Below, in pieces: positions 13,106 to 51,663 of a DNA stretch of 64,000 bases. Each line of letters opens with the position of its first letter. The stretch's first letter is position 1. A program made the position numbers and the translations under genes. Below the pieces are notes generated by a model. That model saw only the letters and a program-made list of their open reading frames with translations, was not told the DNA's origin and made no database searches. The stretch lies in assembly GCF_044324785.1 (NCBI RefSeq), contig NZ_CP172127.1. One strand, 5' to 3'. This DNA comes from Escherichia coli (GTDB lineage Bacteria > Pseudomonadota > Gammaproteobacteria > Enterobacterales > Enterobacteriaceae).

Positions 13106-14038
13106 ATGCTGAATAGCTGGCCTTTAGCCAAAGATTTGCAGGTACTGGTAGAAATCGTCCACAGCGGGAGTTTTAGCGCCGCAGCGGCGACGCTTGGGCA
13201 AACGCCTGCATTTGTCACCAAGCGGATCCAAATCCTTGAAAATACGCTGGCAACAACGCTGCTGAACCGCTCCGCTCGCGGCGTGGCGCTGACTGAAAGT
13301 GGCCAACGTTGTTACGAGCATGCGCTGGAAATCCTCACCCAATATCAGCGACTGGTCGATGACGTTACGCAAATCAAAACGCGCCCGGAGGGGATGATTC
13401 GTATTGGCTGTAGTTTTGGTTTTGGGCGCAGCCATATTGCGCCAGCTATTACCGAACTGATGCGCAATTATCCTGAGTTACAAGTGCATTTTGAATTGTT
13501 CGATCGGCAAATTGATTTAGTGCAGGATAATATTGATCTGGATATTCGTATTAATGACGAAATTCCTGATTATTATATTGCGCATCTTTTGACAAAAAAT
13601 AAACGAATATTATGTGCTGCACCTGAGTATCTGCAAAAATATCCGCAGCCACAATCCTTGCAGGAATTAAGTCGTCATGACTGTCTGGTGACCAAAGAGC
13701 GTGATATGACCCACGGAATATGGGAGTTGGGGAACGGTCAGGAGAAAAAATCGGTGAAGGTAAGCGGGCACCTTTCCTCCAATAGTGGTGAGATTGTGCT
13801 GCAATGGGCGCTGGAAGGAAAAGGAATTATGCTGCGTTCTGAGTGGGATGTTTTGCCGTTTCTGGAGAGTGGCAAACTGGTGCGAGTATTGCCGGAGTAT
13901 GCACAAAGCGCCAATATCTGGGCTGTTTACCGGGAGCCGCTCTATCGCAGCATGAAATTACGTGTCTGCGTGGAATTTCTGGCGGCATGGTGCCAGCAAC
14001 GGCTGGGCAAGCCCGACGAAGGCTATCAGGTTATGTAG
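13106..14038 (+). CDS. ttdR: LysR-family activator of the ttd operon
   Basis: 310 aa; LysR HTH N-terminus; divergent from ttdA. Confidence 0.92.
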
Positions 14039-34167: not shown

Positions 34168-35649
34168 TCAGTTACGGAAAGGGTTATGACCGTTACTGGT
34201 GGTAGTGCGTGCGGATGTTTGCTGAACGACGGGTGCCGGGCTATCAGGCGCATAACCATCAGCAATAGCATTCTGTTCCGGCGTTTGCGGGGCAACGTTT
34301 TCCGGATTAGTGGAAACCGGTTTGCTCAGCGCATTGTTCAGTGCCAGCAGATCCTGCTCGTTCAACGTACCCAGAGCTGATTTAATATTCAACTGGTTAA
34401 TCAGGTAGTTATAACGCGCATTCGCCAGCTCTTGCTTGGCGTTGTACAGCGTGGTGGTCGCATCTAACACATCAACGATGGTACGCGTACCGACCGAGTA
34501 GCCCGCTTCCATCGCGTCTAATGAGCTTTGAGCGGAAACTACGGCTTGTTTGTAGGCGTTAATACTACTGATAGAAGCATTAATGTTGTTGAAGGAGGAA
34601 CGTACGGTTTGCACGACGCTACGATGCGCGCTTTCCAGTTGCTCGCTGGCACCAACAAAGTTGTACTGTGCCTGTTTCACCTGCGAGTTAACCATTCCGC
34701 CCTGATAAATCGGCAGCGAGAAGCTCAGGCCAACTTTGTTCTGGCCCATATTGCTATCGTCATACTGGGTACCCGCGGCACCACGGGTTTTCGAACCGCT
34801 ATAAGAGGTGTCAGAAATCCCGGTAGAAGCCGTTAAATCCAGAGTCGGTAAGTGACCATCCTGCGCCTGGCGAATTTGCTCGCGCGCCAGGTCCTGGCTC
34901 AAGCGTGCCTGTAACAGCGACAGGTTGCGTTTTTCGGCTTCTTTCAGCAGCGCGTTAACCGGCTGCGGTTTGTCGGTTTTAAAGTTTTCAACATTCAGCG
35001 CCGCCAGTTCCGGATAGTAGTTACCGGTGATCTGGCGCAGCTGCTCTACCGCGTTATCAAGGTTATTACGTGCGGTCACTTCGTTCGCCAGCACGGTATC
35101 GTACTGCGCGCGGGCGTTCTGCACGTCGGTGATCGCTACCAGGCCCACGTTAAAACGTTGGGTGGTTTGATCTAATTGACGGTAGATCGCTTCTTTTTGT
35201 GCCTGTGTATAGGAAAGAACGTCAATAGCATTCAACACGTTGAAATAAGCGGTCGCGGTGTTGAGGATCAAGGTTTGCTGATCGGTCTGATACGTGACGT
35301 CCTGAATCCCTGCTGCTTTTTCCTGCAGCGTTAACGCACGCCATTTCGACATATCAAAAATGGATTGAGTTAACTGCAGGGACGCACTGGTCGCGTTAGA
35401 GTTGATGCCGTTCGCGTCGCGGTAGCCGTTGCTATAGGTGTAATCTGCACCTAAACCTAGCTGTGGCAGTAATGGACTGCGCGCTTCATTAATTTTTTCA
35501 AAGGCAGCATCACGATCGGCGGCAGACTTACGCAATTCCGGGTTACTAAGGCGTGCTTGCTGATAAACTTGCATCAGGTTCTCGGCCTGGCTCAACGAAC
35601 TGAACCCAGAAAGGCTCAGGCCGATAAGAATGGGGAGCAATTTCTTCAT
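34168..35649 (-). CDS. tolC: Outer membrane channel TolC
   Basis: 493 aa from MKKLLPILIGLSLSGFSSLSQAENLMQVYQQARLSNPELRKS... Confidence 0.98.
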   Translation of the reverse strand: MKKLLPILIGLSLSGFSSLSQAENLMQVYQQARLSNPELRKSAADRDAAFEKINEARSPLLPQLGLGADYTYSNGYRDANGINSNATSASLQLTQSIFDMSKWRALTLQEKAAGIQDVTYQTDQQTLILNTATAYFNVLNAIDVLSYTQAQKEAIYRQLDQTTQRFNVGLVAITDVQNARAQYDTVLANEVTARNNLDNAVEQLRQITGNYYPELAALNVENFKTDKPQPVNALLKEAEKRNLSLLQARLSQDLAREQIRQAQDGHLPTLDLTASTGISDTSYSGSKTRGAAGTQYDDSNMGQNKVGLSFSLPIYQGGMVNSQVKQAQYNFVGASEQLESAHRSVVQTVRSSFNNINASISSINAYKQAVVSAQSSLDAMEAGYSVGTRTIVDVLDATTTLYNAKQELANARYNYLINQLNIKSALGTLNEQDLLALNNALSKPVSTNPENVAPQTPEQNAIADGYAPDSPAPVVQQTSARTTTSNGHNPFRN

Positions 35650-35853
35650 TTGCATTCCTTGTGGTGAAGCAGTATTTAGCGCGATCAAACTGTAAAATTA
35701 TTGCGGATTCTAGCAGAAGCCGCTACCGCAAAAGGTTGGCGTTACGTGCCATAGGGCGTTAATGTGCCTCAATTTAACACATGACTGCTCAAACGGCAGT
35801 CAAACGTCGCTGAAATTCACATTTAATTCACTATTAGTGCCAGGACATTAACA

Positions 35854-36483
35854 ATGCTTAAGCCAGACAACCTGCCCGTTACATTTGGCAAAAACGATGT
35901 AGAAATTATTGCACGAGAAACACTTTATCGCGGCTTTTTTTCATTAGATCTTTATAGATTTCGTCATCGTCTATTCAACGGGCAAATGAGTCATGAGGTA
36001 CGGCGGGAAATTTTTGAGCGCGGTCACGCCGCAGTCTTGCTACCCTTTGACCCAGTGCGTGATGAAGTTGTGCTGATTGAGCAGATTCGGATTGCCGCGT
36101 ACGACACCAGCGAAACCCCCTGGCTACTGGAGATGGTTGCCGGGATGATTGAAGAGGGGGAAAGTGTGGAAGATGTTGCCCGTCGCGAAGCGATTGAAGA
36201 GGCGGGGCTGATAGTCAAACGGACCAAACCGGTGTTAAGTTTCCTGGCAAGCCCGGGGGGCACCAGTGAGCGTTCGTCAATTATGGTGGGCGAAGTGGAC
36301 GCCACGACCGCAAGCGGTATTCACGGTCTGGCTGATGAAAACGAAGATATTCGCGTTCATGTGGTAAGCCGGGAACAGGCATACCAGTGGGTAGAAGAGG
36401 GGAAAATCGACAACGCAGCGTCGGTCATCGCTTTGCAATGGCTGCAGCTGCATCATCAAGCGTTAAAAAATGAGTGGGCATAA
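35854..36483 (+). CDS. nudF: ADP-ribose pyrophosphatase (Nudix)
   Basis: 209 aa; Nudix box GX5EX7REUXEEXGU present ([22 protein letters not shown]). Confidence 0.95.
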
Positions 36484-47560: not shown

Positions 47561-47875
47561 TTAAATCCCCGGTTGCAGAATACGGATATTCATCTCCAGC
47601 ACGTCGCCTTTTACGGCTTCGCTGTACGCCTTCATGTGCGGGGTTTGCAGATGCGCTTCAAGATGCGCGATGCTTTCCCACTGCTCAATCATCACGATAG
47701 AATCCGGTGCCATAGACTGGAAACTCACGCCAGCAGCGCAATCCACCATTGGCGCATAGCCGTGGCAACCTTCTTCTTTCAGTACGGTTGGAACGATTTT
47801 AGCAAACTGATCCAATACCGCCTGACGGTGATGTTGACCAGGACGAGTACGGATTTCTGCGATTACGGTAAGCAT
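47561..47875 (-). CDS. ygiN: Quinol monooxygenase YgiN
   Basis: 104 aa MLTVIAEIRTRPGQHHRQAVLDQF... Confidence 0.93.
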   Translation of the reverse strand: MLTVIAEIRTRPGQHHRQAVLDQFAKIVPTVLKEEGCHGYAPMVDCAAGVSFQSMAPDSIVMIEQWESIAHLEAHLQTPHMKAYSEAVKGDVLEMNIRILQPGI

Positions 47876-47905
47876 GGTTAACTCCTTCTAAAGCCTGAGC
47901 TCTAG

Positions 47906-48487
47906 TTAACCAAAAATTTCCACAAGATGCTTGCGATATTCTTCAGTATAGCGGGGAACATCAGGCATTTTTATCACGTCATTAGCGATAAATGTCGGCA
48001 GCGGTTCCATGCCAAGGAATTGGTTTGCTTTATGGAATGGCAGATACACACCGTCAACGCCAACGCCGTGGAAGAACTGATCTTTTTCGGTGAAGGCTTC
48101 CATTGGTGCGTTCCAGGTCAGAGAAAGCATATATTTTTTGCCCTGTACCAGGCCGCCGGAACCGTATTTTTTCGACGGATCTTTGCGGGTACGACCATCG
48201 CTGGCATACAGAGTCCCGTGACCTTCGGTGAATACATCATCAATGTATTTTTTCACTGTCCACGGCGCGCCCATCCACCAGCCTGGCATCTGCCAGATCA
48301 CCACATCAGCCCAGAGAAAGTTTTGTACTTCCGCTTTGACATCGTAGTCGCTGTCGGCGCGAACGATGCGAACATCATGCCCGAGGTCGCGCAGTGTGCC
48401 ATCCGCGACTTCGGTCAGGGTGTTGTTCAGTTGACCATTGGAGTGGGCGAATTTTTTCGCGCCGTTGATAATCAGGATGTTGCTCAT
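47906..48487 (-). CDS. mdaB: NADPH:quinone oxidoreductase MdaB
   Basis: 193 aa MSNILIINGAKKFAHSNGQLNNTLTEVADG... Confidence 0.95.
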   Translation of the reverse strand: MSNILIINGAKKFAHSNGQLNNTLTEVADGTLRDLGHDVRIVRADSDYDVKAEVQNFLWADVVIWQMPGWWMGAPWTVKKYIDDVFTEGHGTLYASDGRTRKDPSKKYGSGGLVQGKKYMLSLTWNAPMEAFTEKDQFFHGVGVDGVYLPFHKANQFLGMEPLPTFIANDVIKMPDVPRYTEEYRKHLVEIFG

Positions 48488-48548
48488 TTTTTAACCTCAA
48501 GGTGAGACGTTTGTCGACTATAGTACGTCACAGAGCGGTACGGTGAAA

Positions 48549-48580
48549 TTAGCAAAATGTGCAAAGTCTTTTGCTAATTT
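48549..48580. promoter_or_regulatory. Perfect 10-bp inverted repeat ATTAGCAAAA-N12-TTTTGCTAAT upstream of mdaB and of the Hcp island
   Basis: attagcaaaatgtgcaaagtcttttgctaat, with an extra direct copy ttagcaaaag immediately 3'. Confidence 0.4.
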
Positions 48581-48736
48581 AGCAAAAGTCTGATCTTGCT
48601 CTGATTCACCGATGCGGGATAAATATTTTCTGAAAATGACAATACTGAAATCAACTTCCTATAAGTTCCCACAGGAGAGATGTATTATGTAAATGATAAA
48701 GTAGTTTTTCGGAAAAAATAATCATGGAGAATATAT

Positions 48737-49216
48737 ATGTCAAATATCATATACTTATCAATTAAAGGAAAAACACAAGGTTTGATCTCTGAGGGCTGTG
48801 GTTCGTATGCATCTATTGGTAATAAATATCAAATAAATCATGTGGATGAAATTTTTGTTTTACAGTTCGACCATTCTTTAAGTCGAGAATATAATGTAGT
48901 GCATCATCCCATAAAATTTTACAAGCCAATAGATAAATCCTCTCCTTTATTAAATGCTGCTCTTTCTGAAAATGAAGAGTTATCAGCTGTATTTAATTTT
49001 TATAGAATTAATTCTGGCGGTTGTATTGAAAGGTTTTACACAATTGAATTGCAAGGGGCATATTTATCGAATATTCTGACTTGTTATCCACACTCAATTA
49101 CACATGCGGGTAATCAACCGGAAGAGGTCATTGTTCTTAATTATAAAAATATAACATGGAAGCACCATATCGCGAGTACGGAATCATATAGCTGTTGGGA
49201 AGAAAGGATTTTTTAA
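48737..49216 (+). CDS. hcp: Hcp-family protein (type VI secretion tube protein), orphan copy
   Basis: 159 aa; conserved Hcp blocks: N-terminal Y-x-I-K-G...QGLI-x-GC, FVLQFDH, HHPIKFYKPIDKSSPLLNAAL, VIVLNYKNITWKH; RBS ggag 7 nt upstream; AT-rich context. Confidence 0.85.
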   Translation: MSNIIYLSIKGKTQGLISEGCGSYASIGNKYQINHVDEIFVLQFDHSLSREYNVVHHPIKFYKPIDKSSPLLNAALSENEELSAVFNFYRINSGGCIERFYTIELQGAYLSNILTCYPHSITHAGNQPEEVIVLNYKNITWKHHIASTESYSCWEERIF

Positions 49217-49218
49217 AT

Positions 49219-49926
49219 ATGAAAAGCGATCTCACTATAAAAAATAGATATTGTACAATTCCACAAACGAAGTTCCGTAAATGGGATGAAATGGACGTTT
49301 TACTCTGGAAGTTAGGAAAAAATGATTCGCGTCGCCGTTCAGGAGTATATTATTTAAATGCTTATAAAGATGCATATGTACAATATAATAGGGACAAAAT
49401 AATTAAACATGCATATGCCGCAGGGATTCGTCCAGAGTTATTGGGCGGCGTGGCCTGGATTGAGTCAGGAGGTATGCCTGAAAATTATAAGTTTCAGATA
49501 TATGAAACAAAAAGAATGATCGGATCGTTAGATATGCCTGAAAATAAAACATCATTTGGCTCAATGGGTATACAAATACGAACCGCAGCGATTACTCTAG
49601 GCCTTGACCCTTCAGAATTAACTACCAGAAATCAGTTAGAGTTAGCGACATGCCTGATGGAAGATGATTTTACCTTTAAAATTGCTGCTACTCATTTAAG
49701 AGATCTTGCCCTTTTTGATTATCCCTCTTCGGCAACACTGTATATGACGAATGAGCAGTATATTATGGCTGGTATTAGATATAATCGTGGTGTTGAACGA
49801 GATTTGGGTTTTTTTATTTATTTAATTAATAATTTGCCTGCGCGTGATACAGATGATTATAAATTCATCTCTTATGGTATGAGGTTGTTAGAGATTAGAG
49901 AACATATCAAAAAATTGATTAATTAG
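49219..49926 (+). CDS. Hypothetical protein with lytic-transglycosylase/lysozyme-like motifs; candidate Hcp-associated effector
   Basis: 235 aa from ATG 49219 (RBS ggaagaaagga); motifs WIESGG, SMGIQI and AGIRYNRG with spacing like the ES / GLMQ / AYNxG motifs of family-1 lytic transglycosylases; start 3 nt after the hcp stop. Confidence 0.6.
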   Translation: MKSDLTIKNRYCTIPQTKFRKWDEMDVLLWKLGKNDSRRRSGVYYLNAYKDAYVQYNRDKIIKHAYAAGIRPELLGGVAWIESGGMPENYKFQIYETKRMIGSLDMPENKTSFGSMGIQIRTAAITLGLDPSELTTRNQLELATCLMEDDFTFKIAATHLRDLALFDYPSSATLYMTNEQYIMAGIRYNRGVERDLGFFIYLINNLPARDTDDYKFISYGMRLLEIREHIKKLIN

Positions 49927-49935
49927 TAATCAGAG

Positions 49936-50265
49936 ATGTTAAAAAAACAACTACTATCAATATTTGAAGCACTATTATACATAATGCTTACTTATTGGTT
50001 AATAGATGCTTTTTTTGCTTTCAATAAGTATGACTGGATGCTTGAGTCGGGAGACAATATTTGCAGTATACCTTCCGTTTCAGGCGAAGATCGTATATTG
50101 CAAGCAATGATTGCAGCATTTTTTCTTCTGACGCCACTTATTATTCTTATCTTAAGAAAACTCTTTATGCGGGAAATGTTCGAGTTTTGGCTATATGTAT
50201 TCACGCTCGTTATTTGTTTGGTTTGTGGTTGGTGGCTTTTTTGGGGACGGTTTATATTTTGCTAA
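49936..50265 (+). CDS. Small 3-TM inner-membrane protein; candidate cognate immunity protein (possibly the YgiZ orthologue)
   Basis: 109 aa with three hydrophobic helices; immediately downstream of the putative effector; AT-rich. Confidence 0.55.
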   Translation: MLKKQLLSIFEALLYIMLTYWLIDAFFAFNKYDWMLESGDNICSIPSVSGEDRILQAMIAAFFLLTPLIILILRKLFMREMFEFWLYVFTLVICLVCGWWLFWGRFIFC

Positions 50266-50269
50266 TAGT

Positions 50270-50306
50270 AAAATCTATGAGAGTCGTTTTAACGGCTCTC
50301 ATAGAC
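50270..50306. terminator. 10-bp-stem hairpin closing the Hcp island, convergent with qseC
   Basis: tctatgagagtcgttttaacggctctcataga. Confidence 0.5.
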
Positions 50307-50313
50307 AGAGAAG

Positions 50314-51663
50314 TTACCAGCTCACCTTCGCCTCAAATCCACCTTGTTCCGCATTCCCAAACTCAACATTCATGCCATGCAATTTGGCGATTCGCTGGAC
50401 AATCGATAGCCCAAGTCCACTGCCGGTAGCGGTTTGTCCGGGTGGGCGATAGAAGCGTTCGCCAATTCTCGCCAGTGCCTCTGGTGTCACACCGGGGCCG
50501 TTATCCCTCACGATGAAATTATCGGCATTCAGCGTGACGTCTACCACGCTGCCCTGTGGACTGTAACGCACGGCGTTATCCAGAAGGTTTCGTACCAACA
50601 AACTTAGCAACAGCGGTTGTCCGGTGCGTTTGATGCCGTGGGCATTGAGTGTCAGTCGCACGTCAATTTTCGCCTGCTGCGCCGTGTGGTAAATATCCAT
50701 CACCGACGATTGCAGGAGATCTTCAAGCGGGATCTCCGCGACGTCCTGAAGGTTATCCAGTGAGTCCAGCCGCGATAGCGTGAGCAGTTGATCAACCAGA
50801 CGAGTAGCACGATCGATTCCGGAATGTAATTGAAGCAGCGCTTTTTTCCGCGCCTGCGGATCATCGTCAGAGAGCTGCGCAACTTCGGTTTGCACTTTCA
50901 GCGCCGTTAACGGGCTACGAAGTTCGTGAGCTGCGTCGGAGGTAAAGCGTCGTTCACGAACCATCATCGCATGTGTGCGGGCGAACAGTTGATTCAACGA
51001 CTCAACCAGTGGACGCACTTCGCTGGGTACGCCCGTCGCGTTTAGTGGTTTTTCCGAGTCAGGGTCACGCATACGTAGTGCCAGCGCCAGTTTGTTCAGC
51101 GGCGTGAGTTCACGACCCAGTAGTACCATCATGATGATTAACATAATCGGCAGTGCGACCAGCCACGGGATCAATTGTCCGGCAACAATCGCCAGCGCCA
51201 TGTCTTCACGGTATTCCCATTCCTGACCAACAACGATGCGATATTTGCCATCAGGTGAGGTCATCCAGACAAAACGCCAGGGATCGTCTTCACCGACCAG
51301 TTGCCCGTCAGCAAAACCTTCCCGCTGATAGCTATAGGGAATATCTTCTCCGTTATCGCCATCGTTAAGGACCATTCTGCCGTCGTGGGTAAAGATGGCA
51401 AAGGTCAGCGCATCGTCATCAACATGACCGTGTTTTAATTTATTTGGCGTCTGTGCCATGCGATCCGCCGCGTTGATTTCGTTGAGATCGAGCGTACTTA
51501 ACCGTTTGGCAAACAGCATCAGTTGGGTGTCGAACAACTCATCGACGTTATCCGTTGTTTGTTTCCAGGCGACAAAGCTGGAAAGCAGCCAGGTCACTGA
51601 GGCCAGAATTAAAAAGATTAGCGTCAGCCTGACTCGCAGACTAAGACGTTGGGTAAATTTCAT
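50314..51663 (-). CDS. qseC: Quorum-sensing/adrenergic sensor histidine kinase QseC
   Basis: 449 aa; two TM segments, HisKA and HATPase_c domains. Confidence 0.95.

Follow-up and report, generated by a model that had tools for sequence, protein, structure and literature searches.

The closest described counterpart of the regulatory element reported here is found in Neisseria meningitidis, where the LysR-type regulator CrgA activates the divergent mdaB gene and gives a DNase footprint of 63 bp with two T-N11-A sites (PMC2724274). In enteric bacteria, mdaB is known as a member of the mar regulon (PMC2989944, citing Martin & Rosner 2002), with the literature stating that MarA activates it, and deletion of ramA in Salmonella lowers mdaB expression 3.2-fold, the joint-largest effect after ramA itself (shared with nfsA and acrA), with ygiN falling too (PMC3139621). 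We analyzed a stretch of 64,000 nucleotides from Escherichia coli (RefSeq assembly GCF_044324785.1, contig NZ_CP172127.1), called the window below, in which a preliminary description had pointed out a perfect inverted repeat between mdaB and an hcp-like gene. The repeats are probably the symmetric parts of a composite operator of the mdaB-ygiN operon, made up of a LysR-type site of the YafC/CrgA kind and a marbox for MarA, SoxS, Rob, or RamA, and serving mdaB, not hcp. To our knowledge, the mdaB-ygiN promoter has never been mapped, its regulation being ascribed loosely to the mar regulon and QseB only, and YafC is a LysR-type regulator to which we know of no assigned physiological role in E. 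coli so far.

Read in the mdaB sense, the operator has four half-sites, namely ATTATTGC or ACTTTTGC, then N7, GCAAAAG, a single A, CTTTGC, another N7, and GCTAATTT. The half-sites are one helical turn apart each and form a large pseudo-palindrome, whose promoter-proximal pair overlaps the marbox. The distal dyad, CTTTTGC-TAAATTA-GCAAAAG (positions 48568 to 48588, minus strand), follows the T-N11-A pattern and is centered at 48578, which is -91 from the mdaB ATG and about -65 from the start that we predict; we propose it as the YafC recognition site (RBS). An interrupted T-N11-A dyad about 65 bp upstream of the start is the classical position of a LysR-type recognition site. The proximal second site, CTTTGC-ACATTTT-GCTAATTT (48546 to 48566, minus strand), has the same half-site architecture in the opposite orientation and reaches the -35 region, which makes it a putative activation-binding site (ABS). 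Almost the same bases form the marbox M1, TTTGCACATTTTGCTAATTT (48546 to 48565, minus strand), which lies in forward orientation with its center at about -42 from the predicted start and is a candidate site for MarA, SoxS, or Rob (RamA in other genera).

The promoter elements follow downstream. A weak -35-like hexamer, TTCACC (48542 to 48547, minus strand), as read from the sequence, stands 16 bp upstream of the putative -10 hexamer TACTAT of the mdaB-ygiN promoter (48520 to 48525, minus strand), with a predicted start at about 48513 to 48515, and a promoter scan of the orthologous Salmonella region finds TTCACC-16-TAGAAT. Relative to the start placed by the conserved -10, the center of the dyad is at -64/-65, while the listed K-12 start lies elsewhere. 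The latter, at U00096.2 position 3170500 in the S2 Table of PMC12052159, corresponds after coordinate conversion to base 48539 of the window. We would assign it to a promoter with the extended -10-like element TGCTAATTT inside the second half, RE2, of the marbox (48546 to 48554, minus strand), which would fire at 48539, 52 nt before the ATG. A further K-12 start in this study coincides with the T that opens the distal dyad and precedes the mdaB ATG by 100 nt. This one fits a TAAGAT -10 in the insertion on the ygiZ side (K-12 3172419 to 3172430; window 48596 to 48601), which reads CAAGAT in the window, so this start is probably lineage specific.

The similarity to the CrgA operator (PDB ID 3HHG; PMC2724274) extends to its position upstream of the orthologous mdaB, to the distal site ATTATT[T/G]C-N7-GCAAAAG, and to a TTTGC inner half at the second site. 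The reverse complement of the CrgA footprint reads CATCTG-ATTATTTC-ATTTGAC-GCAAAAG-TGTTTTCTTA-TTTTTGC-ACTTTTA-AATTATAA. Its site 2, ATTATTTC-ATTTGAC-GCAAAAG, agrees with the enteric dyad at 14 of the 15 specified positions with the same spacing (P=5e-5, 20000 shuffles). The site also has the same orientation to mdaB in N. meningitidis, and its center lies at -89 from the ATG; the corresponding value is -91 for E. coli and ranges from -90 to -93 among the enteric outgroups described below. The second Neisseria site, TTTTTGC-N7-AATTATAA, matches the enteric CTTTGC inner half and is placed 10 bp further downstream, so that the two Neisseria sites are further apart by this distance. Two other differences are that the Neisseria regulator gene is divergent and adjacent, with the footprint covering its own promoter, whereas the enteric yafC is located elsewhere with its own copy of the dyad, and that a marbox, absent in Neisseria, lies over the proximal site in enterics.

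Compared with generic LysR promoters with an RBS and an ABS, such as those of CbnR, OxyR, and BenM, the locus shares a T-N11-A site, here predicted to be near -65, a less symmetric site, predicted to be near -35, and a contiguous conservation over about 45 to 50 bp, but the regulator gene is not divergently adjacent here. CrgA-type proteins have been crystallized as octamers and not as tetramers (PMC2724274).

YafC was named as a close E. coli homologue of CrgA (PMC2724274). In a BLASTP comparison the two proteins are 60% identical over 289 residues, with a near-identical winged helix-turn-helix (wHTH), and both pass the NCBIfam equivalog model NF040888 (trans_reg_YafC) with 520.8 and 471.5 bits at a cut-off of 470, while YcaN and TtdR fail. 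YcaN had been considered as the regulator, being a LysR-type transcriptional regulator (LTTR) encoded beside ycaK, a Flavodoxin_2 paralogue, and was rejected, as such a dyad is missing from the intergenic region of ycaN and the protein does not pass the YafC model. The LTTR encoded in the window (13127 to 13981) is TtdR and not a CrgA orthologue. The yafC gene lies outside the window; as 5411 of 5426 complete E. coli genomes carry it, this strain can be expected to have it too.

The same kind of dyad stands at yafC itself. In K-12, the yafC ATG is directly preceded by TTTTGC-AACAGGA-GCAAAA (P=5e-5, shuffles), and in five of six genera, namely in E. coli, Citrobacter, Lelliottia, Dickeya, and Franconibacter, a dyad TTTTGC-N7-GCAA[A/C]A whose 7 spacer nucleotides vary lies directly at the yafC ATG. 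A dyad at the gene of the regulator itself is what LysR autoregulation predicts. In Citrobacter, Dickeya, and Franconibacter, yafC is divergent from a gene for a major facilitator superfamily (MFS) transporter, at a distance of only about 105 bp, and has an aldo-keto reductase gene (dkgB-like) downstream of it, whereas the divergent neighbor in E. coli is yafD; the transporter and the reductase are candidates for further YafC targets. ChIP-exo data for YafC exist (PMC6237786), and RegulonDB holds interactions curated from them (PMC10767902).

The extent of selection on the operator was assessed with a phylogenetic footprint of the mdaB loci of 80 other species, giving, with the window, 81 Enterobacteriaceae sequences. 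In the mdaB sense, the block ATTATTGC-N7-GCAAAAGACTTTGCACATTTTGCT(A/C)ATTT is conserved to at least 90% in each column, and downstream of it come, with no gap in the alignment, about 17 variable bases, then a TAnnAT hexamer and the ribosome-binding site. The -10 column reads TAnnAT in nearly all of the 81 species (TAAAAT, TAGAAT, TAACAT, TATCAT, etc.) and is ungapped relative to the operator. The flanks of the distal dyad, ATTATTGC or ACTTTTGC on one side and GCAAAAG on the other, are kept in every sequence (81/81), with a spacer of exactly 7 nt whose sequence is free. The 7 nt between the proximal half-sites (ACATTTT) are invariant in comparison to this free distal spacer, as an overlaid marbox would impose. 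M1 including these inner 7 nt is invariant in at least 76 species.

The upstream neighbor of the block varies, with the qseC stop codon in 76 of the 80 species, a divergent parC in four outgroups, and ygiZ/hcp islands in a few. In the outgroups Shimwellia, Tenebrionibacter, Mangrovibacter, and isolate 4M9, which have the divergent parC in place of qseC, TTATTGC-N7-GCAAAAG is retained at the same distance from the ATG and the RE2 half of the marbox is lost, indicating that the dyad TTGC-N7-GCAA is the oldest element. The inner half of the proximal site, CTTTGC, which follows GCAAAAG after a single base (T in the outgroups), is kept throughout the enterics, with three of the four outgroups among them, and the outer half in the core Enterobacteriaceae only. 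The preliminary description had left it unclear which promoter the repeat serves. The distance from the block to the mdaB -10 and ATG is fixed in the 81 species whatever lies upstream, which answers this question in favor of mdaB.

The inverted repeat described in the first place is real and nonrandom, with a slightly different geometry. It had been given as 10-bp arms separated by 12 bp at 48549 to 48580, whereas the repeat search returns perfect 12-nt arms, AAATTAGCAAAA and TTTTGCTAATTT, at 48546 to 48557 and 48569 to 48580, which are 11 nt apart. Perfect arms of at least 12 bp with a spacer of up to 20 bp occurred in 0 of 2000 dinucleotide shuffles of the 249-bp mdaB/hcp-like intergenic region, arms of at least 10 bp occurred in 0.85% of them, and other perfect inverted repeats of at least 11 bp are present at only about five places in the 64 kb. 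The distances to the flanking genes had been estimated correctly, being 59 to 93 bp to the mdaB ATG (48487) and 157 bp to the hcp ATG (48737). The adjacent third direct copy was also found, as TTAGCAAAA at 48579 to 48587; this 9-mer thus has three copies within 40 bp. A second inverted repeat, I2, had been missed. It is composed of the middle arm and the third copy (48565 to 48577 and 48579 to 48591, with 1 nt between them) and holds a perfect 21-bp palindrome, CTTTTGCTAA-T-TTAGCAAAAG, at 48568 to 48588.

It is this second pairing, CTTTTGC-N7-GCAAAAG, that is conserved across genera. The idea of a symmetric transcription factor operator is supported, but the pairing of the first copy with the middle arm, which had been highlighted, is not the functional dyad. 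That pairing is a composite of the promoter-proximal half of the distal dyad and the marbox RE2, or second LysR half-site, and it matches the inner half of the distal site to a TTTT-GC that straddles the spacer and the outer half of the proximal site. The reported palindrome is thus a by-product of two conserved sites and not a dyad of its own. Its outer arm parts, ATTA/TAAT, are Escherichia specific, and its 11-bp "spacer" is invariant because it carries the GCAC of the marbox. Looking for the palindrome elsewhere, as had been advised, showed TTTTGC-N7-GCAAAA to be unique to this site within the window, and neither the window nor the 80 loci, ygiW-qseB regions included, hold a second copy of the composite motif, apart from a match in the parE coding sequence.

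The perfection of the repeat in this strain stems from a neutral single-nucleotide polymorphism (SNP) in the variable spacer. Position 48575, the last base of the distal N7, is T in the window, which makes the reported repeat perfect, and G in K-12, O157:H7, and 536, where the middle arm reads TTTTGCGAAT. The substitution is tolerated because it falls into the free-sequence N7. The exact 46-mer at 48546 to 48591 is present in 219 of 5397 complete E. coli genomes (about 4%), and the remaining 5178 fall into the 95 to 99% identity band for this 46-mer, with a single mismatch in the sampled rows. The conspicuous perfect palindrome is thus a strain-specific embellishment, and the functional dyad is the neighboring, less obvious pairing. 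The T allele also creates TGCTAATTT on the plus strand (48569 to 48580), directed toward hcp, the same extended -10-like element that the mdaB strand holds. Two other genomes lose their homology to the window within the operator, E. coli EC05 at about 48552 and NZ_OZ546993.1 at about 48582, which suggests that insertions or rearrangements have split the marbox or the dyad there; these genomes could serve as natural mutants.

The pointer to MarA/SoxS/Rob-type boxes in the preliminary description is supported too. Of the marbox consensus sequences AYnGCACnnWnnRYYAAAY and gcannwwntgnnaaa, M1 agrees with 12 of the 14 specified positions of the former, and its core 15-mer, GCACATTTTGCTAAT, has one mismatch to the latter (14/15). 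Positions 5 to 17 of M1 are identical to the marRAB marbox ATGCCACGTTTTGCTAAATC at 12 of 13 bases. The RE2 half of the marRAB marbox is the very 9-mer that is repeated here, TTAGCAAAA, and K-12 reads GATTTAGCAAAACGTGGCAT upstream of the mar -35. Like the class II mar/sox/rob promoters and the marRAB marbox, the site is an asymmetric 20-bp forward site that would overlap a weak -35, with CAC-N-TTTTGCTAA in common with the marRAB marbox. Unlike them, the predicted mdaB marbox would share DNA with the half-sites of a second regulator, which is not typical of described marboxes. A MarA-DNA structure is said to have been described by Rhee et al. in 1998. The class II definition quoted in PMC12052159 places the center of the site between -36 and -55, overlapping the -35; the center of M1 is at about -42 from the start predicted here and at -16 from the K-12 start of that study.

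The window contains another marbox match, with one mismatch, in the intergenic region between tolC (34168 to 35688, minus strand) and nudF (35854 to 36483, plus strand). It reads ATGGCACGTAACGCCAACC (35734 to 35752, minus strand) and ranks first among the marbox matches of the window that lie upstream of known regulon members. We take it to be the known Mar/Sox/Rob site of tolC.

The strongest competing explanation is that the element consists of marboxes only. M1, with the core GCACATTTTGCTAAT, and a second site M2, GCTAAATTAGCAAAA, 21 bp away on the same face of the helix, would then both be bound by monomeric MarA, SoxS, or Rob, and the symmetry would be a by-product of the GCA...TGC pseudo-repeat. 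The S2 Table of PMC12052159 has both 15-mers, M1 and M2, among its predicted marboxes for mdaB (given as GCACATTTTGCTAAT and GCTAAATTCGCAAAA), the conserved distal positions (A-T-T-G-C ... G-C-A-A-A-A) coincide with marbox positions 1 to 5 and 13 to 18, and the dependence of mdaB expression on MarA and RamA in the literature favors this explanation as well. However, A6 and C7 of the marbox RE1 fall into the free spacer of the distal element, and the outgroups retain the distal dyad but have lost M1. Marboxes only would also leave the 14/15 match to the LysR footprint and the dyad at yafC unexplained. Furthermore, marbox-quality matches are no commoner than chance within the window, so a consensus match alone carries little weight. 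We therefore regard this explanation as unlikely, though the most serious of the alternatives.

For the composite operator of a YafC site and a marbox, the following mode of action can be envisaged. A YafC oligomer would occupy the region of about 45 bp through the recognition dyad at 48568 to 48588 and the weaker dyad CTTTGC-N7-GCTAAT at 48546 to 48566. An electrophile or quinone signal could alter the contact of YafC with the promoter-proximal site and thereby switch mdaB-ygiN on, as CrgA does for the Neisseria mdaB. In addition, a MarA, SoxS, or Rob monomer (RamA in Salmonella and Klebsiella) may activate the same promoter through the marbox at 48546 to 48565 under drug or redox stress.

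Several points weigh against such a composite operator. We infer the binding of YafC at mdaB, the direction of its effect, the transcription start, and the interplay with MarA-type activators from the comparisons above. Both the dyad and an adjacent LTTR gene are absent upstream of mdaB in Acinetobacter johnsonii and in one Neisseriaceae genome, whose MdaB proteins are 76 to 79% identical, and the left half of the dyad is absent from the Salmonella yafC leader that was examined. Salmonella enterica yafC is called with a TTG start there (locus 1380-1503), and a loss of autoregulation or a miscalled start may explain the missing half. On the marbox side, the chance-level frequency of consensus matches counts here too. 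Near the marbox, PMC12052159 has a single K-12 start, and its position 16 bp downstream of the center of the marbox is not an activating geometry, and the mapping of the Salmonella mdaB transcription start failed (PMC2653508). In addition, mdaB is absent from the EcoCyc "high-quality" MarA targets reproduced in PMC12052159 S3 and is not named in the main text of the MarA ChIP-seq paper.

Much less plausible is an operator for QseB (PreA), by which the regulator encoded just upstream would activate mdaB-ygiN within a local qseBC regulon. PreA overexpression raises Salmonella mdaB 7- to 32-fold, leading the authors to hypothesize a PreA site in the mdaB promoter (PMC2653508), and the conserved block begins a few nucleotides after the qseC stop codon in 76 of the 80 species. 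OmpR/PhoB-type regulators typically bind direct repeats. The element, in contrast, is a dyad of inverted halves and not a direct repeat. Related motifs are absent from the ygiW-qseB regions of the 80 loci and the window, the dyad persists where qseBC is not adjacent, and the PreA effect could be indirect or caused by read-through.

An RNA function, either as a hairpin or terminator that ends the qseBC transcript or as alternative hairpins in a long mdaB leader, is just as improbable. In the ancestral arrangement the palindrome directly follows the qseC stop codon, preB and mdaB are not cotranscribed in Salmonella (PMC2653508), and the folding energy of the sense RNA in this strain is -16.5 kcal/mol (z = -3.85). 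This fold is not conserved, however, with z values of -1.75 in Klebsiella, 0.07 in Enterobacter, and -0.85 in Citrobacter and with differing structures; among the RNA folds of six species, only those of this strain and Salmonella are strong. In most genera, a conserved A:A mismatch separates ATTATTGC from a perfect match to GCAAAAG, and the arms do not vary, so that they hold no covariation. The terminator scans gave no terminator-like site, and the dyad persists where there is no upstream codirectional gene.

Finally, a recombination or attachment site of the hcp-ygiZ accessory segment, whose junction is at 48591/48592, is very unlikely. In its favor, E. coli, Citrobacter werkmanii, and a Pseudocitrobacter have the segment inserted within the same few nucleotides, and a fourth copy of TTAGCAAAA is found at the ygiZ stop codon. 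Against it, species with the segment and species without it, 81 in all, have the dyad, neither an integrase nearby nor a flanking direct repeat of the dyad is present, one extra 9-mer match per 64 kb is at chance level (0.78 expected per window), and the shared position is explained by exchange via the conserved qseC and mdaB flanks. Other regulators, namely SlyA (TTAGCAAGCTAA), PurR, sigma-54, Fur, and AphB, were compared by eye only and were set aside for the wrong spacing or half-site orientation.

The regulated operon (47561 to 48487, minus strand) consists of mdaB (47906 to 48487, minus strand, ATG at 48487), encoding an NADPH:quinone oxidoreductase, and ygiN (47561 to 47875, minus strand), encoding a quinol monooxygenase, both identified from the open reading frame (ORF) list and the RefSeq annotation of near-identical loci. 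Cotranscription of mdaB and ygiN was demonstrated in Salmonella (PMC2653508). In plus-strand order, an rpiR-like gene precedes ygiN, and the gene order of the window matches the RefSeq annotation of a 99.8% identical strain. On the other side of the 249-bp intergenic region follow the hcp-like gene (48737 to 49216, plus strand, ATG at 48737), a 243-residue ORF, ygiZ (49936 to 50265, plus strand), and qseC (50314 to 51663, minus strand).

The hcp-like gene, the 243-residue ORF, and ygiZ form an accessory segment (48592 to 50311) that is inserted into the few nucleotides separating the qseC stop codon from the mdaB operator. On the mdaB side, its junction (48591..48592) marks where the ancestral intergenic region between qseC and mdaB, about 106 bp long, has its distal edge. 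Homology to O157:H7 and 536 stops at 48591, and the qseC stop codon comes directly after it in these strains, about 109 bp before the mdaB ATG, with no ygiZ. Across the species of the footprint, 76 of 80 have a same-strand qseC stop codon 102 to 112 bp before the mdaB ATG (144 bp in one), indicating that the short intergenic region is ancestral and that the ygiZ and hcp segments are insertions. K-12 has only ygiZ upstream of mdaB, as has E. whittamii, and about 1260 E. coli genomes carry the hcp-ygiZ segment as in the window. O157:H7 and 536 lack the whole segment, with a GGTAAG duplication at the joint in its place. The segment occurs at the same spot also in Citrobacter werkmanii and a Pseudocitrobacter. 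The hcp-like gene encodes an orphan Hcp, as other type VI secretion genes are absent nearby; its ORF is open for 159 codons, while the 480-bp orthologue in the 99.8% identical ST2747 strain is annotated as a pseudogene with an internal stop.

The element is a genuine, strongly selected regulatory element of mdaB-ygiN and ordinary in kind, being probably a LysR operator with a marbox. Its two genes are a pair of quinone reductase and quinol monooxygenase that is implicated in drug and redox tolerance. In the literature that we reached, no description of the link between YafC and mdaB or of the shared site was found for E. coli, and the link may already sit in a database, though none of the texts that we could search states it. 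As a tentative wider reading, which we hold with less than even confidence, YafC might be the dedicated regulator of the MdaB-YgiN quinone redox cycle across the Enterobacteriaceae. Its operator would then be recognizably inherited in beta- and gammaproteobacteria, and MarA, SoxS, Rob, and RamA would have been grafted later onto its proximal half in the core enterics, so that two stress pathways read the same 45 bp. A CrgA-type box would account for about 45 bp of noncoding DNA that is almost frozen across a bacterial family, and it would give the poorly understood YafC a concrete target and a likely class of signals, namely quinones and electrophiles. The locus may also offer a compact model for two unrelated activators, a LysR-type oligomer and an AraC-type monomer, acting on one stretch of promoter.

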